Origin: Malacoraja senta
Lineage: Eukaryota
Direction of reading: 5' to 3'
Length of the DNA: 64,000 nt
Assembly (NCBI GenBank): GCA_038087875.1
Contig: CM075990.1
Coordinates: 310,001-374,000, forward strand
Part shown: in pieces, positions 3,800 to 50,674 of the stretch
How the letters are laid out: each line of letters starts with the position of its first letter
Numbering within the stretch: position 1 is the first letter of the stretch
The notes under the pieces: model-generated
Told to the model about the DNA's origin: nothing
Seen by the model: only the letters and a program-made list of their open reading frames with translations
Database searches by the model: none
Translations under genes and position numbers: made by a program

Positions 3800-3887
3800 T
3801 GTAATGTTACTCCACTGTTCAAGAAGAGAGCAAGACAAAGGAGGCTGGTTAGCCTGACATCAGTGTTTGGCAAGATTTTAGAGTCTA
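3800..3887 (+). mobile_element. CR1 ORF2 fragment, left half of the copy split by the Helitron stack
   Basis: Translates ...VSLTSVFGKILES + first base of an Ile codon; continues in frame at 27790 as IIKDEISQYLE. Confidence 0.85.
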
Positions 3888-4299
3888 CTAGACTAAGTGG
3901 GACCCATTAGGTCCCATTCTCACACGGGAGGCCTGGTCCCCCAACGTAATATTCCACCACTCACCCATAGCCCCCAACTGCGCAGGCATGGCTGACGGGT
4001 TCCTGTTGTGATGCTTCCCCTCCGCCCTTGCCATCCCCCCCCCCCCCCCCACGTACTCACTCCATCCCCCCCTCCCCCATCCACTATTAGCGGCTCTCTG
4101 GCGGCGCATCCATTCCGCACATTGGGTTCCCATTGTGACATGGAACACGCCGGTATTACTGCGCAGGCACAGCTGACGGGCACGGCAAGTGGAAAAGGTA
4201 TTTATTAAAGCTTAAAATGTGAATAACTCATAATGTAATAACAATTTAAACATTAAAGTGGAGGTTTATTCAGTTCAGTTCTTTCTTCTTGGGTCTCTT

Positions 4300-5150
4300 G
4301 ATGCATTCTGCAGCAGGGGTGGTGGGATGGCTTCAGGCAGGGCCTGTCGAGGCCCGGTGGGGAGGTGGGGGAGCACTGCCATGGGCTACCGTTGCCGTGC
4401 CCTACCAATGCCGTAGCCTACTGCTGCTGTAGCCTACCACTGCCGCTGCTATGGTGGCCTATCAATGCAGTGGGGAGCATCCTACAGCTGGGGAAGGGGC
4501 TGCTTCAAGCTGGGGCCGGTGGGGGTGTGCGTCCTGCAGCCGTGGGAGGGGGATGGCTTCAGGCGGGGGCTGTCAGGGGCCAGTGGGGGAGGGTGTTCTC
4601 CAGCCGGGGAGCGTTCTATAGCCGGAGGACGGGGACAACTTCAGGCGGGGGCTGTTGAGGACCAGTGGGGGGGAGAACGTCCTGCAACCAGGGGATGGGG
4701 ACGGCTTCTGGTGGAGGCTGTCACGGGCCGGTGGGGGTGTAGTGTCCTGCAGCTGTATCCAGGAGAGGGGGATGGCTTCAGGCAGGGGCCGGCGTGGAAC
4801 GTCCTGCAGCCGGGGATGGGGATAGCTTTAGGGCGGGGGCCGGAGAGGGGGAGGCATCCTGCAGCTGGGGACGTGGACGGCTTCAGGCGGGGGCTGGTGG
4901 GGATCGTCCTGCAGCCTGGTGAGGGCGACGGTTTCAGGCGGAGGCTGTCGGGTACTGGTGGGGGGGGGGGAGCACTGGTGTGGCCTAACGCTGCCGTGGT
5001 CTACTGCTGCCATGGCCTGCTGTGGCCTACCAGTGTCATGGACTACCACCACCACAGCATACCCCTGTCGTGGCCTGCCGCTGCCACTGCCGTTGCCTTA
5101 TGCTGGCATGGTCTACCGCTGCAGCTGACGTGGCCTACCGCTGTGTGTCG
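4300..5150. repeat. Degenerate GC-rich minisatellite inside copy A
   Basis: Recurrent cgtcctgcagcc...ggatggcttcaggcgggggc unit, roughly 55-70 bp, plus ggcctac-type subrepeats. Confidence 0.7.
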
Positions 5151-5961
5151 GGGTGGGTGTGTGGCAGGGGGGTGGGGGGTGTGGGGTGGGAGTGATATGG
5201 AGGGGGAGGTGTGTGTTGGCAGGGTTGCTGTGGGGGCGGTGGGGGTGTGGGGGGAGGGGGGGATGTGGGGGATGTGGGGGGAGGGTGGTATGTGGGGGGA
5301 GGGTGTGTGTGTGGGGGTTGGTAGTGTGGGTGTGGGGGTGATGGTGGGGGTGGTTTTGTGGGGGGAGTGTGGGGGTGGTGGTGGGGGTGCAGGGGTATGA
5401 GGAGCTGTAGGGTGGGTGTTGGGGAAGAGTGCGTGGGTGGGTGTGTGAGGGCAGGGTTTGTGTGGGGGAGCGGGTTGTGGGAGGAGCGGGGCTCTGGGGC
5501 GAGCGGGGGAGTGTGGGGGCAGGGGGAGTGGGGGAGGGGGGGTGTGGGGTGACAGGAGTTGTGGGGGAGGGGAAGGGTGTGTGTGGGAGGGGAAGGGGGA
5601 TGTGTGGGGGGTGGGGATGAGGGCTGTAGGGGAGGGGGTTGTAGTGGAGGGGGTGTGGGGGAGGGGGTGTGGAGGAGGGGGATGTGGGGAGGAGGGGTGT
5701 GGATGAGTGTGATGTTGTGGTGGGGGGCTGCTGTGGGGTGGGAGGGGAGTGTGGGCTGGAGGCATGTGGGGGAGGGGGAGTGAGGGGTGTGGTGGTTGTG
5801 GGGGGAGGGGGAGGGTTTCGTGGTTGTGGGGGCATGGGAGGCGGTGTGTGTTTGGGGGGTGGACGAGTGTATGTGGGAATGGTGAGGGGGAGGGGGGAGA
5901 GGGAGGGGGGAGAGGGAGAAGTCGGGGAGGGGGTAGGGCGTGTGTGGACGGGGGGGGGGGG
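5150..5961 (+). repeat. G-rich low-complexity tract (GGGG/GT/GA) with G-quadruplex potential
   Basis: About 800 bp with dozens of G3+ runs and very few C. Confidence 0.85.
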
Positions 5962-6192
5962 TACGGCTTCACTTAACGGCTCTCGGACCCCGCCTCACTC
6001 AGTGGGTCCTGGCCCCGTTTCCTCTCACTCAGCGGCTCCCGAACGCACTAACTCATCGGTTCCCAGCTCGTCGTGATGGCAGACGCAGCCCCCCACTCGC
6101 TCTCCACACACCGCTCACTCCGCTCCTTCAACTTTATTCTCCTCGCCGCCGGTGAATGACAGCGGGTGCCCAAAGGGGCGTTTTTTACAATA

Positions 6193-8282
6193 GCCAATAG
6201 GTCCAGGAGCAGGCCATTCGGCCCTTCGAGCAAGCACCGCCATTTAATGTGATCATATAACCATATAACCATATACCCATTACAGCACGGAAACAGGCCA
6301 TCTCGGCCCTTCAAGTCCGTGCCGAACATTTTTTTTTTTTTTTTTTTTCTTGGCTGATCATCCCCAATCTGTACCCTGTTCCTGCCTTCTCCCCATATCC
6401 TCTCAGCTATTTTTAAGAGCCCTATCTAGCTCTCTCTTGAAAGCATCCAGAGAACCTGCCTCCACTGCCCTGAGGCAGAGAATTCCACAGACTCACCACT
6501 CTCTGTGAGAAAAAGTGTTTCCTCGTCTCCGTTCTAAATGGCTTACTCCTTATTCTTAAACTGTGGCCCCTGGTTCTGGACTCCCCCAAATTCGGGAACA
6601 TGTTTCCTGCCTCTAGCGTGTCCAAACCCTTAACAATCTTATATGTTCCAATGGGATGCCCTCTCATCCTTCTAAACTCCAGAGTGTGCAAGCCCAGCCG
6701 CTCCATTCTCACAGCATATGACAGTCCCACCATCCCGGGAATTAACCTTGTAAACCTACGCTGCACTCCCTCAATAGCAAGAATGTCCTTCCTCAAATTA
6801 GGGGACCAAAACTACTCCATGTGTGGTCTCACTAGGGCTCTGTACAACTGCAGAAGGTCCTCTTTGCTCCTATATTAGACTCCTCTTGTTATAAAGGCCA
6901 ACATGCCATTCGCTTTCTTCACTGCCTGCTGTACCCGCATGCTTACTTTCATAGACTGATGAACAAGGACCCCCAGATCCCGTTGTACTTCCCCTTTTCC
7001 CAACTTGACGCCATTTAGACAGTAATTTGCCTTCCTGTTTTTGCTACCAAAGTGGATAACCTCACATTTATCTGCATTAAACTTCATCTGCCATGCATCT
7101 GCCCACTCCTCCAACCTGTCCAAGTCACCCTGCATTCTCATAGCATCCTCTTCACAGTTCACACTGCCACCCAGCTTTGTGTCATCTGCAAATTTGCTAA
7201 TGTTACTTTGAATCCCTTCATCCAAATCATTGATGTATATTGTAAATAGCTGCGTTCCCAGCACCGAGCTTTGCGGTACCCCGCTAATCACTGCCTGCCC
7301 TTCTGAAAGGGACCTGTTAATCCCTACTCTTTGTTTCCTGTCTGCCAACCAATTTTCTATCCGTGTCAGCACTCTACCCCCAATACCATGTGCCCTAATT
7401 TTGCCCACTAATCTCCTATGTGGGACCTTATCAAATGCTTTCTGAAAGTCCAGGTACACTACATCCACTGGCTCTCCCTTGTCCATTTTCCTAGTTACAT
7501 CTTCAAAAAATTCCAGAAGATTGGTCAAGCATGATTTCCCCTTCGTAAATCCATGCTGACTCAGACCGATTCTGTTACTTCTATCCAAATGTGTGGCTAT
7601 TTCATCTTTTATAATTGACTCCAGCATCTTCCCCACCACCGATGTCAGGCTAACTGGTCTATAATTCCCTGTTTTCTCTCTCCCGCCTTTCTTATAAAGT
7701 GGGATAACATTAGCTACCCTCCAATGCACAGGAACTGATCCTGAGTCTATAGAACATTGGAGAATTATCTCCAAAGCATCCACAATTTCTGGAGCCACTT
7801 CCATAAGTACCTTGGGATGCAGACCATCAGGCCCTGGGGATTTATCAGCCTTCAGTCCCATCAGTCAATCCAACACCATATCCTGCCTAATGTGGATTTC
7901 CTTCAGTTCCTCCATCACCCCAGATCCTCTGGCCACTACTATATCAGGAAAATTGTTTGTGACCTCCTTAGTGAAGACAGATCCAAAGTACCTGTTCAAC
8001 TCATCTGCCATTTCCTTGTTCCCCATAATAAATTCATCTTTTTCAGTCTTCAAGGGTCCAACTTCGGTCTTAACAAATTTTTCCCACTTCACATACCTAA
8101 AGAGGCTTTTACTATCCTCCGTTATATTCTAGGCTAGCTTACCTTCGTACCTCATCTTTTCTCCCCGTATTGCCTTTTTAGTTATCTTCTGTTGCTCTTT
8201 AAACATTACCCAATCCTCTTGCTTCCCGCTCATCTTTGCTGCGTTGTACTTCTTCGCTTTAATTTTTATATTGTCTCTTAAA
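6193..8282 (-). mobile_element. 5'-truncated CR1 LINE nested in copy A
   Basis: RT motifs in ORFs 6875-7861 (NYRPVSLTS, QHGF, YLDFQKAFD, FADDTK) and 6422-6796; TACAATA repeated at 6186-6192 and 8283-8289. Confidence 0.95.
6422..8092 (-). pseudogene. CR1 ORF2 reverse transcriptase, disrupted
   Basis: Three ORF segments separated by stops or frameshifts. Confidence 0.9.
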
Positions 8283-8459
8283 TACAATATTTAAACCTTC
8301 ATAACTTTTGTAATATTCCACCGATCAGAAAAAAAACTTTGTGCACTTGCAGCACAGGAGAATGGCGAGTAAGGTGGTGAAAAATCATAGCACTATCACG
8401 CACCTTTTTTGCACAAATTTAAAAAAAGGACAAGATGAGAGTTTTAGTTAAGTACTAGA

Positions 8460-10314
8460 CTAGACTAAGTGGGACCCATTGGGTCCCATTCTCACATGGG
8501 AGGCCTGGTCCTCCAATGCAATATTCCACCAATCACCCATAGCCCCAACTGCACAGTTGCGGCAGACGTGTTCCCGTTGAAACGCTCCCGATCCACCCTC
8601 ACCTCCCCACTCTGCCCCTTGCCATTCCCCCCCCCCCCACACATGTACTCATTCCATCCCCCCTCAACCCTCCCACCACACTTAGCGGCTCTCCGGCGGC
8701 GCAGCCATTCCTGCCCAATGGGTTCCCAATGTGACATAGAACATGCAGGCATTACTGCGCAGGCGCATCTGACCGGCATAGCAAGTGGAAAAGGGATTTA
8801 TTAAAGTTTAAAATGTGAATAAATCTTAAAATAGTATGTAATTTGGTCGTGGGGGCGCTGCAAGCGGGCAGCCCTGCTAGCAGCGTGTCAGTTTTTTTGG
8901 CTTTTTAAATTTTTTTTAGTGTGTTTAAATGTATGTTCTTAATGTTTCTTTGTGTGTCTTTTGTGGGGGGGTGGTGTGGGGGGGGTAAGGGGAAACCACG
9001 GAGAGGCGACTTTTTCCGTGTCGCCTCCCCCGTAGCCTAACATCGAGGATCGGTGCGGCCTTTCCCGGAGACACGACCGGGGCTTCAGCTGCGGGCGCAG
9101 CGCGGACTCTCGGCGTGGAGTGGGCGAGCGCTCTGTTCGCTGGCCCGCGGCAGCCTGAAGCCGCAGTCTGCAGAGCTCCGGCTGGCGCGGCATCCGCAGC
9201 CTGGGATCCCTCGCTGGGGACCCGGGAGAAGAAGAAGCTCCGATTCCGACTGCCGGCCCGCAGCCAACATCTACCGCGGGCGCGGCGTGGACTTACCATC
9301 AGGAGCGGGGTCCCTCGCCGGGGATCCCTGGAGGGGAGCTTCGACTGCCGGCCCTGCGGTCTGCGGTGCTTCTGGCTGCGGCGCGGCGGGAACTCTAAAT
9401 CTCCGACAGCCGGCCTGCGGCCTACACCAACATGAAGCCGCGGTCTCGGGTGGAGGAGGCACCGATTCAGGACTTACCTTGACTTTCATTCATCTGGATG
9501 CCTGCAGCGGTGGCTGCGGAGGGTTGAGGTCCCGACCACGGGGGAAAATGGAGGAGGACTCGCCAAATTTTGAGCCTTCCACCACAGTGATGAATGCTGT
9601 GGTGGATGTTTGTGTTTAATTTTTATTGTGTTTTTGTGTGTTCTCTTTCATTGTACCACTGCTGGCAAATTAATTTCACTTGCACTTTATGTGAAATGAA
9701 TCCTCATTTAACATAAAGTGAGAATGAGGATTCTCCCTTTCTCATTCCCCCCCCCCACCCCCCAATCCCCCCCACTGCCACTCCTCATTTCCCCAGGACC
9801 TCGAGGTTGCAGCAGTCGGCGTCGCAGTCGGGCCGACTTTGGGGCGGATGGCTTCTGGACTCACTGACTCACGGCTTCTGGACTCACTACTCACTGATTT
9901 TCGGCGTCTGGGCTCATTATTTTCACTGACATACGGCTTCTGGACACAACTAAAATTGTGTTTGGTTGGAGACCTTCACCGGCCATCCAGAGCCTCGCGC
10001 AGCTGCAGTAAAGACGCGATGGTGCAGAAAGGGGCGGACCGTGCCGTGGAGTGACAGTAGAAGGGCCCAATCAGCGCGGCGCTGAATGGCAGGAGAGGCA
10101 ATCGATCTGCGTATGCGCGGTTTTTAAAGATTTTTAAACCTCGATAATTTTTACCAGCTTCCACCGATCGGAACAAAACTTGGTGCAATCGCAGTGCAGG
10201 AGAAGGGTGAATAAGCTGGCTAAACATCGTATCACTATCGCATACCATTTTTGCACAAATAGAATGACCGCCAAACCAGAAGATAAGAAGATGAGAGTTT
10301 TAGTTATGTATAGA
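8460..10314 (-). mobile_element. Non-autonomous Helitron-like element, copy B
   Basis: Minus strand A|TCTATACATAACTAAAACTCTCATC at 10314; perfect hairpin 8470-8488 then CTTAGTCTAG ending at 8460; 8460-8830 homologous to 3888-4235. Confidence 0.9.
8836..9700 (+). mobile_element. GC/CpG-rich non-coding retroposon-like insert in copy B
   Basis: Shares ggggtaagggggaaac, a gcgact...gtcgc hairpin, gatcgg.gcggcctttcc and a tttcact-type tail with 60100-60908. Confidence 0.55.
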
Positions 10315-10681
10315 TGGATATAAGTTATATATATATATATATATATAACTTATATCCATCTATACATATAGATAGAAGAATAGAATAGAATAGATAGATA
10401 GATAGGTAGAAGAATATAGAAGAAGACTAGACTACATGGGAGAGCTGGTCCCCCAACGCAATATTCCAACTCTCCACCAATTCCAATTTTGGTGGACAGT
10501 GGGGGGGGGGGGCTTTCTGGAGTGCTAGTATGGGTACTGTGGGCTGAAGGGACTGGTTAGTATGGACATTGTGGGCCAAATGGATTCTTGGGGTGGCAGC
10601 TCAGTCACTCAAGCCTGATGTGCTGGCAGCTCACTAACGGCTGGGGGGCTAGCAGTTGACTCACGGCTATTCCTTGAAATT

Positions 10682-11080
10682 CCATTTCAAGCAGGGTGCA
10701 AGGCATTCAAATTCAAATGCAGTTTCCTACCATTTCAAGCAGGGTGCAAGGCCACAAAATTCAGGTGCAGTTTCTTACCACTTCAAGCAGGTTGCAAGGC
10801 CACCGAATTCAAGTGCAGTTTCCTACCACTTCAAGCAGGGTGCAAGGCCACCAAATTCAAGTGCAGTTTCATGTCAATTCAAGCAGGGTGCAAGGCCACT
10901 AAATGCTAGTGCTGTTTCATGCCATTTCAAGCAGGGTGCAAGGCCACAAAATTCAAGTACAGTTTCATACCACTTCAAGCAGGGTGCAAGACAACCAAAT
11001 TGAAATGCAGTTTCATACCATTTCAAGCAGGGTGCAAGGCCACCACATTCAAATGCAGTTTCATACCATTTCAAGTGGGG
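10682..11080. repeat. 48-bp tandem array, about 8 units
   Basis: ttcaagcagggtgcaaggcc-type motif recurs every 48 bp (10685, 10733, 10781 ... 11069). Confidence 0.95.
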
Positions 11081-11496
11081 TGAAACCACCATAAAACCAC
11101 TATAAAACCACTCAAAACACCACATAAACACCACATAAACACCACACTCACAGTTCAGTAGACATTCAGTGTGTTCAGTTGATTCACAGCTCAGACAGAG
11201 TCGTGACCTCTCTCTCCCTGATCTTGCAGAGACTGAACCACACCCACACTTACAGGTTTTACAATCCCCCCCCTCCAACTGGAAGGGGCGTGGCCTTCAT
11301 GGCGTGATTGACAGGAGAGAGATTCTCAACAATTATTTAAACACTAATAACACTTTTATTTTTCAATGATGGGAAGAATCCTCTGCACCTGATGAGTGGC
11401 GAGGAACTGAGTAAGATGGACAAAAATCACAGCCATAAGTGGTAGCATTTTATCTAAAATCAATATTCAGTGCAAACAGGAAGTTGTCAAGTTTCC

Positions 11497-14400
11497 ACCA
11501 ACAGACATTTTTTTTTGCCATGCAGCCTTTCAAAGCAGTTACCACCACCAACAACAGCCTTTTTTTGCAGTGCAGCCTTTAAAAGTAGTTACCACCACCA
11601 ACAAAAGCCTTTTTTTTGCCGTGCAGCCTTATAAAGCATTTACCACAACCAACAACAGCCATTTTTTTTGCAGTGCAGCCATTCAAAGCAGTTACCACCA
11701 CCAACAACAGCCATTTTTTGCAGTGCATCCTGTCAAAGCAGTTACCACCACCAACAACAGACATTTCTTTGCAGTGCAGCCTTTCAAAGCAGGTACCACC
11801 GCCAACAACAGCCATTTATTATTGCAGTGCAACTACCTTTAAAAGCAGTTACCACCACCAACAGCCATTTTTTTTGCAGTGCAGCAGCCTTTCAAAGCAG
11901 TTACCACCACTAACAAAAGCATTTTTTTGGCAGTGCAGCCTTTCAAAGCAGTTACCACCACCAACAACAGCTGTTCATTTTGCAGTGCAGCCTTTCAAAG
12001 CAGTTACCTCCACCAACAACAGCCATTTTTTTTGCAGTGCAGCCTTTCAAAGCAGTTACCACCACCACCAACAGCCATTTTTTTTGCAGGGCAGCTTTTA
12101 AAAGCAGTTACCACCACCAACTGCCGCCATTTTTTTTGCAATGAAGTCTTTCAAAGTATTTACCACCACCAACAGCAATTTTTTTTTGCAATGCAGCCTT
12201 GCAAAGCAGTTACCACCACCAACAGCCATTATTTTTTTGCAGTGCAACCTTTCAAAGCAGTTACCACCAACAACATCATTCTTTCTTTTTTTGCAGTGCA
12301 GCCATTTAAAAGCAGTTAATACCACCAACAAAAGTCTTTTTTTTTTGCAGTGCAGCCTTTTAAAAGCAGTTACCACCACCAACATCAGCCTTTTTTTTTT
12401 ACAGTGCAGCCTTTCAAAGCAGTTACTAACACGAACAGCCATTTTTTTTGCAGTGCAGCCTTTCAAAGCAGTTACCACCACCAACAGCAGCCATTTTTAT
12501 TTGCAGTGCAGCCTTTCAAAGTAGTTACCACCAGCAACAGCCATTTTTTTGCAATGGAGTCTTTCAAAGCAGTTACCACCACCAACAGCCATTCATTTTG
12601 CAGTACAGCCTTTCAAAGCAGTTACCACCACCAACAACAGCCATTTTTTCTTTGCAGTGCGCCTTTCAAAGCAGTGCAGCAGCCTTTCAAAGCAGTTACC
12701 ACCACCAACAAAAGCATTTTTGCCGTGCAGCCTATCAAAGCAGTTACCAGCACCAACAACAGCCATTTTTTCTTTGCAGTGTGCCTTTCAAAGCAGTTAC
12801 CACCAACAACAACAGCCATTTTTTTTGCAGTGCAGCCTTTCAAAGCAGTTACCACCACCAACAACAGCCATTTTTATTTGCAGTGCAGCCTTTCAAAGCA
12901 GTTGCCATCAACAACAGCCATTATTATTTGCAATGCAACATTTTAAAAGCAGTTACCACTACCAACAACAGCCATGTTTTTGCAGTGCAGCTTTTCAAAG
13001 CTGTTACCACCACCAACAACCATTTTTTGCAGTGCAACCTTTCAAAGTTACTACCACCAACAACAGCCATTTCTATTTGCAGTGCAGCCTTTCAAAGTAG
13101 TTACCATCTCCAACAGCCATTTTTTTTTGCAGTGCAGCCATTCAAAGCAGTTACCACCACCAACAAAATTATTTCATTTTTGCAGTGCAGCCTTTTAAAA
13201 GCAGTTACCACCACCAACAACAGCCTTTTTTTTTGAAGTGCTGCCTTTCAAAGCAGTTACCACCACCAACAACAGCCATTTTTTGCAATGCAGCCTTTCA
13301 AAGCAGTTACCACCACCAATAAAAGCCTTTTTTTTCCAGTGCAGCCTATTAAAAGCAGCTACCACCACCAACAACAGCCATTTTTTTTGCAGTGCAGACT
13401 TTCAAAGCAGTTACCATCACCACCAACAGGCATTTTTTTTGCAGTGCAGACTTTCAAAGCAGTTACCACCACCAACAACATCCATTATTTTTTGCAGTGC
13501 AGCCTTTCAAAGCAGTTACCACCACCAACACAATTCTTTTTTTTTGTGGTGCAGCCATTTAAAAGCAGTTACCACCACCAACAGCCATTATTTTTTGCAG
13601 TGCAGCCTTTCAAAGCAGTTACCACCACCAACAACATTCTTTTTTTTTGCGGTGCAGCCATTTAAAAGCAGTTACCACCACTAACAACAGCCTTCTTTTT
13701 TTTGCAGTGCAGGCTTTCAAAGCAGTTACCACCACCAACAACAGCCATGTTTATTTGCAGTGCAACCTTTCTAAGCAGTTACCAGCACCAACAACAGCCA
13801 TTTTTTTTTAGCAGTACAGCCTTTCAAAGCAGTTACCACCACCAACAGCCATTTTTATTTGCAGTGCAGCCTTTCAAAGCGGTTACCGCCACCAACAACA
13901 GCCATTTTTTTGCAGTGCAGCCTTTCAAAGCAGTTATCACCACCAACAACAGCCATTTTTTTTAGCAGTACCGCCTTTCAAAGTAGTTCCCACCACCAAC
14001 AGCCATTTTTATTTGCAGTGCAGCCTTTCAAAGCAGTTACCACCACCAACAACAACCATTTTTTTGCAGTGCAGCCTTTTGAAAGCAGTTACCACCACCA
14101 ACAACAGCCATTTTTATTTGCAGTGTAGCCTTTCAAAGCGGTTACCACCAACAACAACAGCCATTTTTTTGCAGTGCAGCCTTTCAAAGCAGTTACCACC
14201 ACCAACAACAGCCATTTTTTCTTTGCAGTGCGCCTTTCAAAGCAGTGCAGCAGCCTTTCAAAGCAGTTACCACCACCAACAAAAGCATTTTTTGCCGTGC
14301 AGCCTTTCAAAGCAGTTACCACCAACAACAACAGCCATTTTTTTTGTTGCAGTGCAGACTTTGAAAGCAGTTACCACCACCAACAACAACCATTTTTTTT

Positions 14401-17400
14401 GCAGTGCAAACTTTCAAAGCAGTTACTACCAACAACAGCCATTTTTTTTTGCAGTGCAGCCTTTCAAAGCAGTTACCACCACCAACAACAGACATTTTTA
14501 TTTGCAGTGCAGCCTTTCAAAGCAGTTACCATCAACAACAGCCATTATTATTTGCAATGCAACATTTTAAAAGCAGTTACCACCACCAACAACAGCCATT
14601 ATTTTTTGCAATGCAGCCTTTCAAAGCAGATACCACCACCAACATCATTATTTCCTTTTTGCAGTGCAGCCTTTCAAAGCAGTTACCACCACCAACAACA
14701 GCAATTTTTTTGCAGTGCAGCCTTTCAAAGCAGTTACCACCACCACCAACAGCCATTTTTTTGCAGTGCAGCCTTTCAAAGCAGTTACCACCACTAACAA
14801 CAGCCATTTTTTTGCAGTACAGCCTTTCAAAGCAGTTACCACCACCAACAACAGCATTTTTTTTGCAGTGCAGAATTTCAAAGCAGTTACCACCACCACC
14901 AACAACAGCCATTTTTTTGCAGTGCAGCCTTTCAAAGCAGTTACCACCACCAACAACAGCCATTTATTTTTGCAGTGCAGTCTTTCAACGCATTTACCAC
15001 TACCAACAACAGCAATTTTTTTTGCAGTGCAGCCTTTCAAAGCAGTTACCACCACCAACAACAGCAATTTTTTTGCAGTGCAGTCTTTTAAAAGCAGTTA
15101 CCACCACCAACAACAGCCATGTTTTTGCAGTGCAGCTTTTCAAAGCTGTTACCACCACCAACAACCATTTTTTTGCAGTGCAACCTTTCAAAGTTGCTAC
15201 CAGCAACAACAGCCATTTCTATTTGCAGTCCAGCCTTTCAAAGTAGTTACCATCTCCAACAACAGCCATTTTTTTTGTCGTGCAGCCTTTCAAAGCAGTT
15301 ACCACCACCAACAAAATTATTTATTTTTTGCAGTGCAGCCTTTTAAAAGCAGTTACCACCACCAACAACAGCCTTTTTTTTGAAGTGCTGCCTTTCAAAG
15401 CAGTTACCACCACCAACAACAGCCATTTTTTGCAATGCAGCCTTTCAAAGCAGTTACCACCACCAATAAAAGCCTTTTTTTTTCCAGTGCAGCCTATTAA
15501 AAGCAGCTACCACCACCAACAACAGCCATTTTTTTTGCAGTGCAGACTTTCAAAGCAGTTACCATCACCACCAACAGGCATTTTTTTTGCAGTGCAGACT
15601 TTCAAAGCAGTTACCACCACCAACAACATCCATTATTTTTTGCAGTGCAGCCTTTCAAAGCAGTTACCACCACCAACACAATTCTTTTTTTTTGCGGTGC
15701 AGCCATTTAAAAGCAGTTACCACCACCAACAGCCATTATTTTTTGCAGTGCAGCCTTTCAAAGCAGTTACCACCACCAACAACATTCTTTTTTTTGCGGT
15801 GCAGCCATTTAAAAGCAGTTACCACCACTAACAACAGCCTTCTTTTTTTTGCAGTGCAGGCTTTCAAAGCAGTTACCACCACCAACAACAGCCATGTTTA
15901 TTTGCAGTGCAACCTTTCTAAGCAGTTACCAGCACCAACAACAGCCATTTTTTTTTAGCAGTACAGCCTTTCAAAGCAGTTACCACCACCAACAGCCATT
16001 TTTATTTGCAGTGCAGCCTTTCAAAGCGGTTACCGCCACCAACAACAGCCATTTTTTTGCAGTGCAGCCTTTCAAAGCAGTTATCACCACCAACAACAGC
16101 CATTTTTTTTAGCAGTACCGCCTTTCAAAGTAGTTCCCACCACCAACAGCCATTTTTATTTGCAGTGCAGCCTTTCAAAGCAGTTACCACCACCAACAAC
16201 AACCATTTTTTTGCAGTGCAGCCTTTTGAAAGCAGTTACCACCACCAACAACAGCCATTTTTATTTGCAGTGTAGCCTTTCAAAGCAGTTACTACCACCA
16301 ACAACAACAGCCATTTTTTTGCAGTGCAGCCTTTCAAAGCAGTGCAGCAGCCTTTCAAAGCAGTTACCACCACCAACAAAAGCATTTTTTGCCGTGCAGC
16401 CTTTCAAAGCAGTTACCACCAACAACAACAGCCATTTTTTTTGTTGCAGTGCAGACTTTCAAAGCAGTTACCACCACCAACAACAACCATTTTTTTTGCA
16501 GTGCAAACTTTCAAAGCAGTTACTACCACCAACAGCCATTTTTTTTTGCATTGCAGCCTTTCAAAGCAGTTACCACCACCAACAACAGACATTTTTATTT
16601 GCAGTGCAGCCTTTCAAAGCAGTTACCATCAACAACAGCCATTATTATTTGCAATGCAACATTTTAAAAGCAGTTACCACCACCAACAACAGCCATTATT
16701 TTTTGCAATGCAGCCTTTCAAAGCAGATACCACCACCAACATCATTATTTCTTTTTTGCAGTGCAGCCTTTCAAAGCAGTTACCACCACCAACAACAGCA
16801 ATTTTTTTGCAGTGCAGCCTTTCAAAGCAGTTACCACCACCACCAACAGCCATTTTTTTTGCAGTGCAGCCTTTCAAAGCAGTTACCACCACTAACAACA
16901 GCCATTTTTTTGCAGTACAGCCTTTCAAAGCAGTTACCACCACCAACATCAGCCTTTTTTTTGCAGTGCATCCTTTCAAAGCAGTTACCACCACCAACAG
17001 ACATTTTTTTTGTTGCAGTGCAGCCTTTCATAGCAGTTACCACCACCAACAACAGCAATTTTGTTTGCAGTGCAGCCTTTTAAAAGCAGTTACCACCACC
17101 AACAACAGCCATGTTTTTGCAGTGCAGATTTTCAAAGCTGTTACCACCACCAACAACCATTTTTTGCAGTGCAACCTTTCAAAGTTACTACCACCAACAA
17201 CAGCCATTTCTATTTGCAGTGCAGCCTTTCAAAGTAGTTACCATCTCCAACAGCCATTTTTTTTTGCAGTGCAGCCTTTCATAGCAGTTACCACCACCAA
17301 CAAAATTATTTCTTTTTTGCAGTGCAGCCTTTTAAAAGCAGTCACCACCACCAACAACAGACTTTTTTTTTGAAGTGCTGCCTTTCAAAGCAGTTACCAC

Positions 17401-20400
17401 CACCAACAACAGCCATTTTTTGCAGTGCGCCTTTCAAAGCAGTTACTACCACCAACAGCCATTTTTTTTTGCATTGCAGCCTTTCAAACCAGTTACCACC
17501 ACCAACAACAGCCATTTTTATTTGCAGTGCAGCCTTTCAAAGCAGTTACCACCACCAACAAGAGCCTTTTTTTTTGCAGTGCAGCCATTCAAAGCAGTTA
17601 CCACCACCAACAACAGCCATTTATTTTTGCAGTGCAGTCTTTCAACGCATTTACCACTACCAACAACAGCAATTTTTTTTGCAATGCAGCCTTTCAAAGC
17701 AGTTACCACCACCAACGTCAGGCATTTTTTTGCAATGCAACATTTTAAAAGCAGTTACCACCACCAACAACAGCCATTATTTTTTGCAGTGCAGCCTTTC
17801 AAAGCAGATACCACCACCAACAAAATTATTTATTTTTTGCAGTGCAGCCTTTTAAAAGCAGTTACCACCACCAACAACAGCCTTTTTTTTGAAGTGCTGC
17901 CTTTCAAAGCAGTTACCACCACCAACAACAGCCATTTTTTGCAATGCAGCCTTTCAAAGCAGTTATCACCACCAACAACAGCCATTTTTTTAGCAGTACA
18001 GCCTTTCAAAGTAGTTCCCACCACCAACAGCCATTTTTATTTGCAGTGCAGCCTTTCAAAGCAGTTACCACCACCAACAACAACCATTTTTTTGCAGTGC
18101 AGCCTTTTGAAAGCAGTTACCACCACCAACAACAGCCATTTTTATTTGCAGTGCAGCCTTTCAAAGCGGTTACCACCACCAACAACAGCCATTTTTTTGC
18201 AGTGCAGCCTTTCAAAGCAGTTACCACCACCAACAACAGCCATTTTTTCTTTGCAGTGCGCCTTTCAAAGCAGTGCAGCAGCCTTTCAAAGCAGTTACCA
18301 CCACCAACAAAAGCATTTTTTGCCGTGCAGCCTTTCAAAGCAGTTACCACCAACAAAAACAGCCATTTTTTTTGTTGCATTGCAGCCTTTCAAAGCAGTT
18401 ACCACCACCAACAACAGACATTTTTATTTGCAGTGCAGCCTTTCAAAGCAGTTACCATCAACAACAGCCATTATTATTTGCAATGCAACATTTTAAAAGC
18501 AGTTACCACCACCAACAACAGCCATTATTTTTTGCAATGCAGCCTTTCAAAGCAGATACCACCACCAACATCATTATTTCTTTTTTGCAGTGCAGCCTTT
18601 CAAAGCAGTTACCACCACCAACAACAGCAATTTTTTTGCAGTGCAGCCTTTCAAAGCAGTTACCACCACCACCAACAGCCATTTTTTTGCAGTGCAGCCT
18701 TTCAAAGCAGTTACCACCACTAACAACAGCCATTTTTTTGCAGTACAGCCTTTCAAAACAGTTACCACCACCAACATCAGCCTTTTTTTTGCAGTGCATC
18801 CTTTCAAAGCAGTTACCACCACCAACAGACATTTTTTTTGTTGCAGTGCAGCCTTTCATAGCAGTTACCACCACCAACAACAGCAATTTTTTTTGCAGTG
18901 CAGCCTTTTAAAAGCAGTTACCACCACCAACAACAGCCATGTTTTTGCAGTGCAGATTTTCAAAGCTGTTACCACCACCAACAACCATTTTTTGCAGTGC
19001 AACCTTTCAAAGTTACTACCACCAACAACAGCCATTTCTATTTGCAGTCCAGCCTTTCAAAGTAGTTACCATCTCCAACAGCCATTTTTTTTGCAGTGCA
19101 GCCTTTCATAGCAGTTACCACCACCAACAAAATTATTTCTTTTTTGCAGTGCAGCCTTTTAAAAGCAGTTACCACCACCAACAACAGACTTTTTTTTTGA
19201 AGTGCTGCCTTTCAAAGCAGTTACCACCACCAACAACAGCCATTTTTTGCAGTGCGCCTTTCAAAGCAGTTACTACCACCAACAGCCATTTTTTTTGCAT
19301 TGCAGCCTTTCAAACCAGTTACCACCACCAACAACAGCCATTTTTATTTGCAGTGCAGCCTTTCAAAGCAGTTACCACCACCAACAAGAGCCTTTTTTTT
19401 TGCAGTGCAGCCATTCAAAGCAGTTACCACCACCAACAACAGCCATTTATTTTTGCAGTGCAGTCTTTCAACGCATTTACCACTACCAACAACAGCAATT
19501 TTTTTTGCAATGCAGCCTTTCAAAGCAGTTACCACCACCAACATCAGGCATTTTTTTGCAATGCAACATTTTAAAAGCAGTTACCACCACCAACAACAGC
19601 CATTATTTTTTGCAGTGCAGCCTTTCAAAGCAGATACCACCACCAACAAAATTATTTATTTTTTGCAGTGCAGCCTTTTAAAAGCAGTTACCACCACCAA
19701 CAACAGCCATGTTTTTGCAGTGCAGATTTTCAAAGCTGTTACCACCACCAACAACCATTTTTTGCAGTGCAACCTTTCAAAGTTACTACCACCAACAACA
19801 GCCATTTCTATTTGCAGTCCAGCCTTTCAAAGTAGTTACCATCTCCAACAGCCATTTTTTTTGCAGTGCAGCCTTTCATAGCAGTTACCACCACCAACAA
19901 AATTATTTCTTTTTTGCAGTGCAGCCTTTTAAAAGCAGTTACCACCACCAACAACAGACTTTTTTTTTGAAGTGCTGCCTTTCAAAGCAGTTACCACCAC
20001 CAACAACAGCCATTTTTTGCAGTGCGCCTTTCAAAGCAGTTACTACCACCAACAGCCATTTTTTTGCATTGCAGCCTTTCAAACCAGTTACCACCACCAA
20101 CAACAGCCATTTTTATTTGCAGTGCAGCCTTTCAAAGCAGTTACCACCACCAACAAGAGCCTTTTTTTTTGCAGTGCAGCCATTCAAAGCAGTTACCACC
20201 ACCAACAACAGCCATTTATTTTTGCAGTGCAGTCTTTCAACGCATTTACCACTACCAACAACAGCAATTTTTTTTGCAATGCAGCCTTTCAAAGCAGTTA
20301 CCACCACCAACATCAGGCATTTTTTTGCAATGCAACATTTTAAAAGCAGTTACCACCACCAACAACAGCCATTATTTTTTGCAGTGCAGCCTTTCAAAGC

Positions 20401-22772
20401 AGATACCACCACCAACAAAATTATTTATTTTTTGCAGTGCAGCCTTTTAAAAGCAGTTACCACCACCAACAACAGCCTTTTTTTTGAAGTGCTGCCTTTC
20501 AAAGCAGTTACCACCACCAACAACAGCCATTTTTTGCAATGCAGCCTTTCAAGGCAGTTACCACCACCAACAAAAGCCTTTCTTTCCAGTGCAGCCTATT
20601 AAAAGCAGCTACCACCACCAACAACAGCTATTTTTTTTGCAGTGCAGACTTTCAAAGCAGTTACCATCACCACCAACAGGCATTTTTTTTGCATTGCAGA
20701 CTTTCAAAGCAGTTACCACCACCAACAACATCCATTATTTTTTGCAGTGCAGCCTTTCAAAGCAGTTACCACCACCAACAACATTCTTTTTTGCAGTGCA
20801 GCCTTTCAAAGCAGTTACCACCACCAACAACATTCTTTTTTTTTGCGGTGCAGCCATTTAAAAGCAGTTACCACCACTAACAACAGCATTTTTTTTTGCA
20901 GTGCAAGCTTTCAAAGCAGTTACCACCACCAACAACAGCCATGTTTATTTGCAGTGCAACCTTTCTAAGCAGTTACCACCACCAACAACAGCCATTTTTT
21001 TTAGCAGTACAGCCTTTCAAAGCAGTTACCACCACCAACAGCCATTTTTATTTGCAGTGCAGCCTTTCAAAGCGGTTACCACCACCAACAACAGCCATTT
21101 TTTTTTAGCAGTACAGCCTTTCAAAGCAGTTACCATCAACAACAGCCATTATTATTTGCAATGCAACATTTTAAAAGCAGTTACCACCACCAACAACAGC
21201 CATTATTTTTTGCAATGCAGTCTTTCAAAGCAGATACCACCACCAACATCATTATTATTTATTTTTTGCAGTGCAGCCTCTCAAAGCAGTTACCACCACC
21301 AACAACAGCAATTTTTTTGCAGTGCAGCCTTTCAAAGCAGTTACCACCACCACCAACAGCCATTTTTTTGCAGTGCAGCCTTTCAAAGCAGTTACCACCA
21401 CTAACAACAACCATTTTTTTGCAGTGCATCCTTTCAAAGCAGTTACCATCACCAACAGACATTTTTTTTGTTGCAGTGCAGCATTTCATAGCAGTTACCA
21501 CCACCAACAACAGCCATTTTTTTTGCAGTGCAGCCTTTTAAAAGCAGTTACCACCACCAACAACAGCCATGTTTTTGCAGTGCAGCTTTTCTAAGCCGTT
21601 TCCACCACCAACAACCATTTTTTGCAGTGCAACCTTTCAAAGTTACTACCATCAACAACAGCCATTTTTTTTGCAGTGCAGCCTTTCAAAGCAGTTACCA
21701 CCACCAACAACAGCCTTTTTTTTTGCAGTGCAGCCATTCAAAGCAGTTACCACCACCAACAACAGCCATTTTTTTTGCAGTGCAGTCATTCAATGCAGTT
21801 ACCACCACCAACAACAGCAATTTTTTTTGCAATGCAGCCTTTCAAAGCAGTTACCACCACCAACATCAGGCATTTTTTTGCAATGCAACATTTTAAAAGC
21901 AGTTACCACCACCAACAACAGCCATTATTTTTTGCAGTGCAGCCTTTCAAAGCAGATACCACCACCAACAAAATTATTTATTTTTTGCAGTGCAGCCTTT
22001 TAAAAGCAGTTACCACCACCAACAACAGCCTTTTTTTTTGAAGTGCTGCCTTTCAAAGCAGTTACCACCACCAACAACAGCCATTTTTTGCAATGCAGCC
22101 TTTCAAAGCAGTTACCACCACCAACAAAAGCCTTTATTTTCCAGTGCAGCCTATTAAAAGCAGCTACCACCACCAACAACATCCATTATTTTTTGCAGTG
22201 CAGCCTTTCAAAGCAGTTACCACCACCAACAGGCATTTTTTTTGCAGTGCAGCCTTTCAAAGCAGTTACCACCACCAACAACATTCTTTTTTTTGCGGTG
22301 CAGCCATTTAAAAGCAGTTACCACCACAAACAACAGCATTTTTTTTGCAGTGCAGGCTTTCAAAGCAGTTACCACCACCAACAACAGCCATGTTTATTTG
22401 CAGTGCAACCTTTCTAAGCAGTTACCACCACCAACAACAGCCATTTTTTTTAGCAGTACAGCCTTTCAAAGTAGTTCCCACCACCAACAGCCATTTTAAT
22501 TTGCAGTGCAGCCTTTCAAAGCAGTTACCACCACCAACAACAACCATTTTTTTGCAGTGCAGCCTTTTGAAAGCAGTTACCACCACCAACAACAGCCATT
22601 TTTTTGCAGTGCAGCCTTTCAAAGCAGTTACCACCACCTACAACAGCCATTTTTTTTTGCAGTGGAGCCTTTCAAAGCGGTTACCACCACCAACAACAGC
22701 CATTTTTTTTGCAGTGCAACCTTTCAAAGCAGTTACCACCACCAACAACAGCCATTATTTTTGCAGTGCAAC
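11497..22772. repeat. About 52-bp satellite, roughly 210-215 units, with higher-order repeats
   Basis: Consensus GCAGTGCAGCCTTTCAAAGCAGTTACCACCACCAACAACAGCCATTTTTTT(T). Confidence 0.98.
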
Positions 22773-22802
22773 AATATTTTCATTTTCAAACCATGTTAAG
22801 GG

Positions 22803-22930
22803 CACTCACAGTTGAGTAGACATGTGTTCAGTGTTATTCAGAGCTCAGAGAGATGTGACCCTCTCGTTTCTCCATCTTGCCGAGACTGAGTGAGGCACAC
22901 CACTTCCAGGTTTTATAGTCCCTCCCCACA
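22803..22930 (-). promoter_or_regulatory. Predicted Pol II core promoter and first exon in copy C, facing the 52-bp array
   Basis: TATAAAA 22917-22911, Inr TCAGTCT with A at 22887 (30 nt downstream), CAAGATGG, GTGAGT donor at about 22809. Confidence 0.5.
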
Positions 22931-23689
22931 GCAGGGGCAGCAGAGAGAATGGTGAAATTTTTAAAAACATTAATATCTCTCCGATTTTATATCGATGGGG
23001 AAAATCCTCCAGTCCAGTCCAGCGGAAGGGGGCTCTGAGCGAGCTGGCCGTAAATGATGGCCGTAAGGTGCGGCGTTCTCTCAGAAATCATATTGCAGTG
23101 TCTAAAGCGGTCAAGTAATATAGAAATAGACAGGTAGAATAGTAAGATTAAAAGAGAACTTACCAGTTTGAAGTTTGAACTTTATTTTATGAGGAGTTAC
23201 ATTGGTGATTACGTGAAGAAGACCCATCAGGGCGCATGCGCGTCAATCTTCAAAGCAGCGGTATGAAATCACAGATAACAGAAAATATGAAGTAACATGA
23301 GAACTACCATATGACCTTTATGAGAGAGAGGGTTGGGCGTGGCGGGCATGTAATCATCAACGTAACTCCTCATAAAATAAAGTTCAAACTTCAAACTGGT
23401 AAGTTCTCGTTTAATCTTACTATTTTACTTCGGAGTCACTTTAGTGATTCCGTGAAGAGTTCAAAGCTCTGTGATTTTATGCCGCAGATTCAAATCCCGG
23501 CTTCTCACTGCATTGATTGACTTCGGATGAGAAACAATCAATAATTCGTTAAACATGAAATTGAATATCATGCAGTAACAATTGATTTGAATAATCAAAA
23601 CAAACAGTAACCCCTCTATCCCAGCGGAAACTAAACAGAACTTAATACTGAATTTGCAAACAGCCTCTCCCCGATCGGCAATCGGCCGA

Positions 23690-24600
23690 TGGAAAAAAAC
23701 ATTTGAAAAATCAATTCATGTGACCACCCGGCACCTGTAGGAATATGGTCGATGGGAACATCCATCGCCCTAGCCGACGACGTTGCTGCTGCACTAGTGG
23801 AAAAAGATATATACACATCAGTGTTATTACCTGCCTGAATCAACATTTGCTTTAAACCACCTTGAGATAGTCTGCACTGACACTCTCCTGTGTGGCTTCA
23901 TGTAACTGATAAACAATCCTGTTTCCACATTTCTTAAGGCCCTTGTAGCTTCAATATAAAGAAAATAAATGTGCCATTGCACATAAACATGGATCAGTAG
24001 GTTATGCTGAAAACACAATTTTAACAAACCTGTGACACCTGGCCTGCTCTGTTTGAGCAGGACGCAAATATATAACATAACATTCTCTTCAGCCACTTCC
24101 ATCCTGTCTAGCTGAAACTTTTGCAAAATCTGCACTTGCTATGCTGAACCAATGCCATGAGCATGACCACCTTCATGGTTAGTTTGGCAAATTCAGAGAC
24201 ATGACAGGAACCTACTGTCGAAGCATCTTGAGGACCACACTTACATCCCAGATCGCCATATACCTGGGTTTAGGAGGTTTGGAGTTGAAATTCCTTTCAT
24301 CAATCGAGCTATGAGATGATGAAAACGCAATAGGATCTTTTCCTGACCCCATCAAAATATACGAGGACAAAGCACTTAAAGCTGTATTAATGGCAATATA
24401 ACTGAGCCCCTCATCATCGTAGAGTGTCGACAGGAACTCTAAAATATCCACAATACCTGCAGTACTATAGTCAATATTATTTTGCTCCCATTTTTTACAT
24501 AAGTAATATACCGCTTTTGAGTACTCTTTCTCCAGACTGCAGTGAGCATGTCCACCGTTCGCCCAGACAGTCCTCGCACCAGGTATGGCCTTCTTTAAAC
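23690..24600 (-). pseudogene. DIRS tyrosine recombinase, frameshifted
   Basis: ILEFL...GLSY.AINTA.SALSS, PRY..IWDVSVVL, LKQSRPG, LFISY.KPH..VS.QTISRW, ST.AAATS.A...VPIDHI...AGWS. Confidence 0.85.
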
Positions 24601-24699
24601 CTGCAAATTAACAAGTCAATACGATCACATAACGGATGACTTACCCGTGTTAGCGGATGCTCCAGTAAATTCCTACGCTTGGGAACCACCAAAGGAGGT

Positions 24700-25010
24700 T
24701 GGATCGCTAACTGTAACATGTAAAGGAAACCATGCTTGAGTCAGGCAATTAGGTATTACAAGCACCCCCGAAGCGGCATCCTACTTGATTTTTTGCAGAC
24801 TCCGACCTATGAGGTAGAATGGTGGGAAAATATATAAAAACATACCACCCCAATGTAGCGCGAAAGCATCAATTGCAACTGCCCCCTGGTCTGGTTCCCA
24901 TGAAACATATTTAGGCAGCCGGTGGTTAAACCTCGATGCAAAACAAATCGATAATTGGCATTCACATACAAGTACTATATTATTGAACACCTCCTGGTTC
25001 AACATCCAAT
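24700..25010 (-). pseudogene. DIRS Dam-like methyltransferase domain remnant
   Basis: FASRFNHRLPKYVSWEPDQGAVAIDAFALHW...YIFPPF..IGRSLQKI. Confidence 0.75.
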
Positions 25011-26250
25011 CTGTGTTGTCATGGAACTTTTGTGACTTGGCGTCTGCTACTATGTTGAATCTACCTGGTAGATAAATAGCTGAAAACCAAATATCTTTTT
25101 CAATGCACCAGGCCCAAATTTGATTAGCTAATCTGTCACAAGATACCGACTTGATTCCACCGATGTAATTAATATATATGCCACTGCCGTAGTATTGTCA
25201 ATCTGAAACTGAACATGCAGGTTACCTTTGTTAGAGCAATAAGCCTTATCCATAAAAAGCTCTTAATAGTTAACTCCGCATGTCTGCAGAAGCGATGCCT
25301 CTTGCTCAGTCCATCTGCCTCCACAGCTGAAACTCGTATCCGTGACACCCCACCCGAGTGCACTGACATTCATCTGCAAAATCATGGAAGGCTGGTCAAG
25401 CACTGCCTTGCTAGAACTCCTGGACACATGTTGAATCCACCATTGCAAATCAGAAACAGCCTCTGCTCATAACTGCATGGGTCTATTATAATGACCCGAA
25501 TGTATCCTTAGTGCCTCTATTAGCTTGATACAGTTGTCAATTAGCTCAACCCTTTTTCCCTGGGCAGAGTCACTTAATTGAATCAATTGTGACCCAAATA
25601 GTCAGGTGTTAATTTGGATTTGGCTGGATGAATAATGCCCAATCTTTGAAAATTGGATTTAACAACTACCACTGGTTACTTCAGCTGTTCTCTTGGATCC
25701 CCTTGTAATCAAGATATCATCGAGATAAGCCATGAGCACCTGACCCTGGCCTCTCAGTATGCCTATTATAGGTTTTAATAATTTTGTGCCATAGTTGATC
25801 CATCCAGGTGCATTTCAAATATCCTCTATCCTGCAAATGAACAGACATTGAGTAATCCGCATCTTTAAGCTTTATAGTCACCATATAGCATCCTCTTGAC
25901 CCAGTTGCTTGGCAGTGACATTCCATCTTACAATGTCTATACTACATCCCCCATGCTTTTTTGGCCTAGGAAAATATTAGACACCAATTGATGGGGTTGG
26001 TGAACCGACTTTCCAATTACACCTTTATCACATAAGCTTCCAAGCGCAGTCTAAACATCCATTTGTTCTGTTAATGAAAACTGAACAGTTCTCCCAGCAA
26101 CATGCTGAATGTGCAAATCACAATTTGGATTGAGCTCCATTCGAAACCCTTGAATAACACTCAGTATAAACAGAGCTGAGGTAATTTGCTTCCATTCATC
26201 CCACAACAGATGTACTGTACCCCCAGATTTAAGTTGTGTCACATTTGATA
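25010..26250 (-). pseudogene. DIRS reverse transcriptase / RNase H, heavily disrupted
   Basis: WDEWKQITS...ILSVIQGF, YMVTIKLKDADYSM, QWWIQH...SALGWG...CGGRWT.QE. Confidence 0.8.
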
Positions 26251-26376
26251 TGTGCACCTGAGAACCAGGCCCACCTACCTCCTTGGTACCTGGTGGATCA
26301 CGTTGTACCCGGCTCCTGGCGGGAAAGCCGACATTTGACCGTGTTCCTGCTGCAGAATGCCACCTGCGCATCTGCA

Positions 26377-27454
26377 TTACCTGCCGACTTGTTCCTGGTC
26401 CAGCCTCGTTTGTAGGGGTACTTTCTTTTTTGGAAACTTGCCGACCACCGGTGGCTTGATCAAGCCCACCGTCTTTGCCTCGTCATCCATGTCCTTGACA
26501 TGCTTGGCAAGGTCCTCTCCGAAGAGTAGGTTGGCCGGATGTATGTTGCTGGGCTGGCAGAGTACTGCAAACTTAGGATTAATAGTGGGCCGAATGGCAC
26601 TTTCCCTGAGACAATTTATCTCAAAATGGGTGCTACAAAACAACCCTAGTACCTCTTGCTGTGTCTCCGACACATGCCCTCCATCCACCGTTCTAGCGAA
26701 CGCTGTGATTCCTGAGCCAAGTAATTTCAGGATTCTCTGCAGCTTCATCTCCTGGGCACTGCATTCCCACGCCCGTCTGGCTCCATGTCACTCGGTTCAC
26801 TGCTGGCACCTTCAGCAACTCGCAGTTACCCAGGTCTCCTGTTTCTTGGCGGTTCCAGACTCTGACTGGACAGCGAATCGTGCTGCCAGAGATGGGAACT
26901 CTGACAACGGCCGTCTTCGCTTTCCCAGTGGCACTGCATACTCTGACGGGACAGCGAATCGTGCTGCCAGAGATGGACTTCTGCCAACGGCCGTCTTCGC
27001 TAGTCAACGAAGTCACCGTCAGAGTAGGGTCAGAACTGAGCTGACCCTCTGCACTTACCTCACAAATGAGGGTGGTATCAAACAGCCCTCTACCAGGTGC
27101 AGCCGGCGCGGCCTCTTCTGTAGCCTACCGCCCACACGACTCCTCCCCCTGAAGTGTGCGTTACTGGAGCAACCCCTGAATGAGGTGCTCCATATGGGAT
27201 ACCATTCAAAAACTGTATCCAGCCCCGTACGGGACTCGTCGCAGCCCGACTCAGTTGAGCCCTTACAGACATCCCCCTGGCCTGACGCCCGCTAGCGTTG
27301 GCTCTATGATAGTGCTTTATATCGCTAAGTCTGCAGTCGCTCCTCTCCCGGTCGGCGACTGTGTAGGGGTACGAGGCAGCCGCTCACAGACCACATTCCC
27401 GCGGCTCTCCTTTGCTTTACCTGCGGCTGCCCTCCCCCTGCTCGTCTTCACCAT
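26377..27454 (-). pseudogene. DIRS ORF1 (gag-like), disrupted
   Basis: FEINCLRESAIRP...LLFGEDLAKHVKD motif; ATG in gcaccATGG at 27454; internal duplication of about 63 bp at 26859 and 26940. Confidence 0.7.
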
Positions 27455-27789
27455 GGTGCTACCTGTAACAAAAAACACAGCAAAGGAACTTTTCACTCCA
27501 GCTAAGCTTCCCACTTAGTTGGAGTTTTAAAACTACTTAAAATATCAAAAATCCCTTACCTGAAGAGGAGCTCTGTCCTCCTGCTGGTCCGTGCACCAAT
27601 GCGTCCGACGTAAAATCACGCGTATGCGCCCTGACGGGTCTTCTTCACGGAATCACTAAAGTGACTCTGAAGTAAAATATAGAATATATAGAGATAGAGA
27701 CAGACAGACAGACAGAGAGGCAGACGGACAGTAATAGATAGAAGAATAGATAGAATAGAATAGATCGAAGATAGAAGAAGATAGATAGA

Positions 27790-34300: not shown

Positions 34301-34924
34301 AACTGCAGAATCTCCACTCCCTCTTGAGTGCCTATATTCTTTATAATATGACAGAGCAATTTGCAGCACACTACGCATGATCTAACCAAGGTTTGAACCA
34401 GGTCATCGAGTCACAGAGCAAGCCCTGCGGGCCATGCCAACAAGTTAGCCAACTAAGCTGGTCCCATTTGTCTTGTTTGGTCCAAAACTGTCCTGTCCAT
34501 CTACAAGTGCCTTTTAAATGTTGTAATTGTACCTGCCTCTACTACTTCCTCTGGTACCTCTTTCATGTACCTACCACCCTCTATATGAAAAATTAGCTCC
34601 ACATGTCTCTTTTAAATCTTTCCGCTCTTATCTTAAATCTATGCTCTCTACTTTTTAGGCTCTCTTATCATGTGGAAATGACTATGACTATACACCTTTT
34701 ACCTACCCCATATCTATATTACTAAAAGTAAGATCTTGACCGCTTTTGACTCACTGCGATGTGATTTCCGAGAGAACACCGCCACTTACGGCCGTCATTT
34801 TTGGCCACCTCGTTCAGAGCCCCCCTCCGCCGGAGTGGACTGGAGGATTTCTCCCATCGATGAAAAATCTGAGAGATATTAATGTTTTTTTTTTTAATCA
34901 CCATTCTCTCTGCTGCCCCTGCTG

Positions 34925-35057
34925 GTGGGAGGGGGGAGGGACTATAAAACCCAGAAGTGGTGTGCCTCACTCAGTCTCTGCAAGATGGAGGAAACGAGAG
35001 GGTCACGTCTCTCTGAACTCTGAATAACACTGAAAACATGTCTACTCAACTGTGAGT
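34925..35057 (+). promoter_or_regulatory. Predicted Pol II core promoter and first exon, module 1 of copy D
   Basis: G-rich box, TATAAAA 34943, Inr TCAGTCT with A at 34973, CAAGATGG 34981, GTGAGT 35052. Confidence 0.55.
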
Positions 35058-35106
35058 GCCCTTAATGTGGTTTGAAAATGAAAATATAGTTGGTTTGAAG
35101 TAATAA

Positions 35107-36408: not shown

Positions 36409-36449
36409 GTGGTGTTTTGTGTGGTTTTATGGTGGTTTTATGGTGGTTT

Positions 36450-50661: not shown

Positions 50662-50674
50662 CCCCCTCGATGTG

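Follow-up and report, generated by a model that had tools for sequence, protein, structure and literature searches.

We examined a 64,000-nucleotide stretch of the genome of the skate Malacoraja senta (GCA_038087875.1, CM075990.1, here contig C14, positions 310,001-374,000; hereafter the window), in which three Helitron-like elements, named C, B and A, lie head to tail inside one copy of the element CR1, and compared it with loci from the whole of the 1.94 Gb genome searched. Stacks of this kind very probably arise when a newcomer splits the first bases of the 5' end (the head) of a resident Helitron, likely through a preference of RepHel for A^T-N6/7-TAAAA (the caret marks the point of insertion), which heads themselves carry; this reading comes from the comparison of sequences.

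In the genome there are 6,951 exact copies of the 17-nt 3' end and 12,696 occurrences of a strict head motif. Taking as a junction any exact 3' end followed by the strict head motif within 32 nt, we found that 264 of the 6,951 ends adjoin a head (31 with a TC start and 233 without), where 0.66 would be expected at random; the same-strand head-to-tail stacking which an earlier note on this DNA had described in the window is therefore enriched genome-wide. In unbiased samples, 6 of 89 distinct 3' ends (92 before the removal of duplicates) and 4 of 30 heads were stacked, the latter comprising none of the 12 A-type heads and 4 of the 18 others. The youngest A-type head, which lacks an A^T at the preferred spacing, seldom has another element stacked on it; this may reflect either avoidance or a shorter exposure. 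Stacks of three to five elements were found at L070, L089, L190, L268, L292 and L294 (such labels denote loci fetched genome-wide for comparison), and the window locus is an ordinary member of this pattern, inflated by passengers.

Most junctions lack the start of the resident head: 233 of the 264 strict junctions (88%) have no TC start, and 20 of 30 sampled from these stand 7-8 nt ahead of the resident's TAAAA. Split junctions lack the opening bases of the native head, a native TCTATACATAAC being seen, for example, as TACATAAC. If a newcomer has split the head, the missing bases should precede the newcomer's own start. We looked for them at 70 non-TC loci (some being the same junction fetched twice), in which 22 junctions were scorable. 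In 16 of these 22 stacks the newcomer's start was immediately preceded by an orphan TCTA or TCATA, compared to 1 of 30 control A-type heads (p = 1e-7), and the single positive control was itself a stack. The type of orphan matched the resident subfamily in all 16 cases, with TCATA accompanying F/H residents (6/6) and TCTA the others (10/10; p = 1e-4). In a comparison of 91 junctions, similarity on the upstream side did not correlate with similarity on the downstream side (r = -0.04, Mantel p = 0.87), and only 1 of 4,095 pairs of junctions was close on both sides. Matched orphans and uncorrelated partners thus indicate that the upstream element is the later one and that the events were independent. 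A minority of junctions (L074/L075, L302) may be true tandems.

In the window, the stack forms a block at 3888-27789, which together with its CR1 flanks comprises the following features (window coordinates are used for all parts of the block):

3803..3887, plus strand: left half of the host CR1 reverse transcriptase fragment, ending ...KILES; the minus-strand site reads A^T-N6-TAAAA
3888..8454, minus strand: element C, a non-autonomous Helitron1-type element, with a hairpin-CTAG end at 3888 and a head beginning TACTTAAC-TAAAA, the first TCTA missing
6188..8283, minus strand: younger CR1 plus SINE-like piece inside C; C aligns to L214/L225 across 8283->6191
8455..8459, minus strand: extra TCTAG between B's end and C's head, with the same doubling at L024
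8460..10314, minus strand: element B, with a hairpin-CTAG end at 8460 and an intact head, TCTATACATAAC-TAAAA
10315..10426, minus strand: TCTA/TCTTC-rich tract upstream of B's head, recognised from its sequence
10427..23124, minus strand: element A, the youngest, with a CTAG end whose hairpin is deleted and the head TCTATATTAC, whose TAAAA box is deleted
11495..22770, no strand assigned: 52-bp satellite inside A, ~217 copies, 11,276 bp; the sequence on either side of it corresponds to that flanking the 45-bp array in a compact A copy
23138..27677, minus strand: DIRS-like retroelement with broken open reading frames, inserted later at AATAG in the head tract; it has inverted ends and an internal complementary region at 23347-23458
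27678..27789, minus strand: outer TCTA-rich tract (with 23125-23137), starting A^TCTATCTA, recognised from its sequence
27790..28650, plus strand: right half of the host CR1 reverse transcriptase fragment, beginning IIKDEI, assigned from its translation and from comparison with intact copies

Read along the minus strand, the parts follow one another from the host A through the outer TCTA tract, the DIRS-like element, A, the tract, B, TCTAG and C to the host T. The left edge of the block reads ...gagtcta|CTAG at 3888 and the right edge GA(27789)|ttattaaggatgag, which on the minus strand gives A^TC...hairpin-CTAG^T. The halves of the CR1 rejoin exactly, with 0 duplication and 0 loss; in all of this the earlier note was right. 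Intact CR1 copies are contiguous across the site. A 16-mer from the right flank has 16 genome matches including the window locus itself, and five of these (L128-L132) are intact CR1 copies which run across the insertion site, at 74-86% identity in the left flank and 70-84% in the right; the left flank has shorter matches in L137 and L141 too. Because the same five copies match both flanks at similar identity, the two halves belong to one subfamily. The flanks translate as ...KILES and IIKDEI... of the CR1 reverse transcriptase. Helitrons enter the DNA between an A and a T with no target site duplication, and the host site, which fits A^T-N6/7-TAAAA, has a target score within the top 0.75% of AT sites.

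Other claims made for the block held in part. Three distinct subfamily members do lie in the same orientation, with CTAG ends at 3888, 8460 and 10427, and the three-element stack is real. However, of its 23,902 bp, taken to be a 23.9-kb Helitron-like stack, only ~6.0 kb is Helitron-derived sequence plus head tracts and ~18 kb is passengers: the satellite (11,276 bp, inside A), the DIRS-like element (4,540 bp) and the CR1/SINE piece (2,083 bp, inside C). A single A^T site describes the outer bounds only: the insertion point of B lies within C's head, and that of A in the tract, ~110 bp upstream of B's head. There is a TC at 27789, but it opens the TCTA-rich tract and A's canonical start is at 23124; likewise the hairpin exists at the C end (3888), but A's 3' end is without one.

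TC starts are found for the block, B and A, while C's head is split, its TACTTAAC start being the common split form; A-type heads are preceded by A in 30 of 30 cases, and T follows 6,774 of the 6,951 exact 3' ends. The ends of C and B have a stem of 7-8 bp 10 nt before the end (with z scores of only -1.9 and -0.95), and the 3' hairpin deleted in A is retained in its relative. With a TC start, a CTRR end, a hairpin and A^T insertion without target duplication, C, B and A would be canonical non-autonomous Helitrons (Helitron1). Identity to the best relatives is ~80% for C, ~81% for B and 87-93% for A, and 86-92% for the CR1 part of C's insert; such best-match identities among fetched loci are a rough measure of age from a non-random sample.

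At this locus C would have inserted into the CR1, B into C's head and A into the TCTA tract, a short way upstream of B's head; the satellite would have expanded and the DIRS-like element inserted once A, B and C were in place. Each insertion would bring a new head, and the stack would grow in the 5' direction. The far end of the block begins TCTA, as the split-head model predicts, and the outer TCTA-rich tract likely consists of bases orphaned from the heads and tracts of C and B, as the orphan-head test suggests. The extra TCTAG at 8455..8459 is probably a duplicated 3' end. Directly upstream of B's head and overlapping it, 10305-10368 is a ~60-bp perfect palindrome centred on (TA)n, which appears to be a fold-back copy of the bases with which the head starts. 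Long (TCTA)n runs stand directly upstream of heads at L267, L276 and L019; an orphan and a newcomer may together form TCTA-TCTA seeds which are open to expansion.

The earlier note had offered two alternatives for the origin of the stack. The first, that the 5' end is a self-perpetuating landing pad, is supported genome-wide, but most newcomers enter the head itself, at an A^T a few bases in from its start, and not the host-A/TC junction. The second was co-mobilisation of a concatemer; in the form considered here, a rolling-circle concatemer or composite, A-B-C (or A-B, aided by A's lost hairpin) would have been copied and inserted as a unit. Both internal junctions, A|B and B|C, do read CTAG|TC, the exact junction which a circle or concatemer yields according to the Helraiser article text (PMC4778049), where hairpin loss also raises read-through; B and C are similar in age, some subfamilies are composites in which an internal second head has become fixed, a homotypic tandem with common changes is found at L074/L075 and two autonomous copies have the same bypassed end. 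However, the units are not one element of one age but three subfamilies, with A the younger, and the hairpin-less A end at A|B has one genome match, which is the window locus. At B|C the head is split, an additional TCTAG is present and there is no twin among the 31 strict TC junctions, and A|B meets the tract and not B's head, so that neither the exact junctions of a concatemer nor a recurring composite was found. Genome-wide, the 233 junctions without TC and the single pair of 4,095 close on both sides also speak against this reading, which leaves the matched orphans unexplained. The concatemer is largely refuted genome-wide, and we consider it very improbable.

Three further observations concern units of this kind. 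The commonest A-type subfamily (L099, L104, L108 and others) has a fixed internal second head ~700 bp before its 3' end with no preceding CTAG end, which is an old composite amplified as a unit. L084 and L088 were considered as a case of co-mobilisation, but their flanks are in common, so this is a duplication. A B|C-like junction at C15:284k was considered as a paralogue of the window locus, and the surrounding C15:260-320 kb proved unrelated.

An assembly artefact, by which unrelated pieces were joined via the 11-kb satellite, would be suggested by the long array inside the block, for which no spanning read or contig was seen. It is highly implausible: the array flanks match the two sides of the compact A copy, the outer CR1 halves rejoin to the base and there are 0 N gaps inside the block. 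Only the length of the satellite array is in doubt.

The genome contains 112 matches to PF14214. Both RepHel copies examined (2/2) have frames of 1,727-1,766 aa in which HUH and Y2 motifs are present; they have a TAAAACTCTC head (TAAAA) and a sister 3' end, and both also sit in stacks. A, B and C were presumably mobilised by RepHel copies with related ends. At L311-L314, A and not T comes after the CTAG end of both autonomous copies, which have their downstream sequence in common; this is a bypassed terminator which has become fixed in the family.

Splitting of resident heads agrees with the target preference of solo elements. T-N6/7-TAAAA follows 10 of 80 solo ends, compared to 114 of 19,779 background AT sites (22x), and spacings of 5, 8 and 9 give ~2-fold for TAAA. 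Across the genome 1,167 ends have T-N6/7-TAAAA, in agreement with this bias, and 25 of the first 100 lie in heads (judged by eye).

Several points weigh against our account. A clean orphan is missing in 6 of the 22 scorable stacks, and only 22 were scorable, the rest being without a visible or canonical upstream head or having an upstream element which is itself stacked; native TCATA-type heads were found in only two solo copies (L125 and L254). At the window locus the orphan, sitting in the TCTA tract, has no diagnostic value, B and C are alike in age so that age does not settle their order, A's insertion site scores weakly (LR 1.6) and no empty or partly filled allele was seen. In public runs, X16/X17 contigs match 5-6 short stretches in C with 0-1 differences, and there was no junction-spanning piece among those listed, repeats swamping the search. 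The target matrix was built from 80 sites in the first 21 Mb of one contig against a background of 140 kb, and it predicts 0.04-0.15% per head site compared to the 2.1% observed per head.

This last discrepancy bears on another explanation, in which heads are merely good AT-rich targets and nothing element-specific is recognised, the insertions being sequential as proposed above. Head sites do fall in the top 0.2-1.1% of AT sites by target score, and of the first 100 T-N6/7-TAAAA targets ~75 lie outside heads and 10 are in the tail of one other repeat (by eye). However, heads receive 2.1% of insertions each compared to ~0.06% per generic motif site, a ~30-fold difference, and exact A^TC junctions at A-type heads number 8 of 2,237 (0.36%) where 0.003% is predicted. 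We regard such a passive match as rather unlikely. Heads are targeted roughly 10-40x more than the motif predicts, and because they are taken more often than the short motif predicts, RepHel likely also recognises, or is retained at, the conserved head behind TAAAA.

Under the split-head reading, we tentatively suggest, as something short of an even chance, that RepHel picks its targets with the ruler of its own origin, an A^T nick 7-8 nt before TAAAA strengthened by the conserved head, so that Helitrons would be polar and self-targeting. If this is true, insertions renew the landing pad and leave TCTA scars which seed (TCTA/GATA)n microsatellites, and selection may favour head lengths which avoid this spacing, the youngest A-type head, at 10 nt, being an example. 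It could also explain the head-to-tail arrays of bats and plants without concatemers, and would permit programmable Helitron integration.

The other repeat with 10 of the first 100 targets in its tail (TGACAATAAAA...CTCTTGAC, for example at C1:19828523, 49690073 and 108167611) resembles a Helitron head beyond TAAAA and is a second hot spot. Recurrent insertions at identical positions of apparent CR1 copies (L011, L019 and L029; window 37363 and L045) suggest further sequence hot spots.

Among the passengers, the 52-bp satellite is, judged by its sequence, an expanded form of A's internal tandem repeat: on either side of the satellite, A corresponds to the compact copy at 34713-37362, and it also has a 48-bp array at 10682-11082. 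Family members in the window outside the block lie at 34713-37362, 50325-52331 and 53290-55660, with internal tandem units of 45/48, 69 and 68 bp, and the second and third of these are arranged tail to tail, facing each other. The DIRS-like element has inverted matches of 83%, 94% and 97% between its inverted termini and internal complementary region, as is typical of such an element. Its coding sequence gave an RNase H/Dam-like lead (score 0.96), with no Pfam family above cut-off in 5 fragments, and it presumably also has a likeness to a tyrosine recombinase. The internal complementary region holds the circle junction, and the 24-mer of the end has 46 genome matches. We considered whether this element targets Helitron heads, but 16 flanks of the 46 matches comprised 12 internal complementary regions and 4 true ends, none in a head; the true ends follow AATAG (3) or AACAG (1).

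Helraiser and Helibat1 likewise have TC...hairpin-CTAG ends, an A^T target, an AT-rich bias 3' of the site and precisely joined circles (PMC4778049, PMC5876387), and the article texts, to which this comparison was confined, describe no spaced TAAAA motif and no self-targeting; the logo in Fig. 5a may nevertheless contain a first hint of it. In the literature searched, which excluded key subscription papers, figures and supplements, we found neither a spaced TAAAA target motif nor a split-head test, and absence from print is not thereby established; the accessible text of PMC13286980, PMC13085455, PMC9409754 and PMC10288648 has nothing on self-targeting, and a search on cartilaginous fishes found nothing on Helitron stacking. 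Helitrons and Helentrons with internal tandem repeats, as described in PMC7492417, PMC9659126 and PMC12001565, resemble A's satellite-like array, of which only the 11-kb size is new.

Neighbouring Helitrons arranged head to tail in maize, and head-to-tail junctions in bats cited from Pritham and Feschotte 2007 (Du et al. 2008, PMC2267711, article text), have same-orientation 3'-to-5' junctions as in the skate stacks. However, that report concerns one case of unclear order, whereas the skate has hundreds of junctions, mostly cut inside the head, with orphans which fix the order. Maize Helitrons with multiple termini and Fusarium FoHeli also show insertion near or inside other Helitrons and extra termini, and a three-copy tandem is left undecided between 5' insertion and rolling circle in the texts of this group (PMC3288121, PMC5148889, PMC13342296). 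The internal 3' ends in maize are damaged and FoHeli is non-canonical, whereas in the skate internal ends are intact, stacks mix subfamilies and a base-level rule applies. Concatemer versus consecutive insertion, and the order of events, were left open in the texts on maize (PMC2267711) and on the fungal tandem (PMC5148889); the orphan-head test settles both from one genome and is applicable to any other, and counts of junctions should not be taken as evidence of rolling-circle multimers. A spaced target motif resembling the start of the element itself can be put to the test with an active RepHel and is relevant to the control of integration. Head-to-tail stacking of Helitrons was thus already known, and it is the base-level rule and the proof of order which appear to be new.

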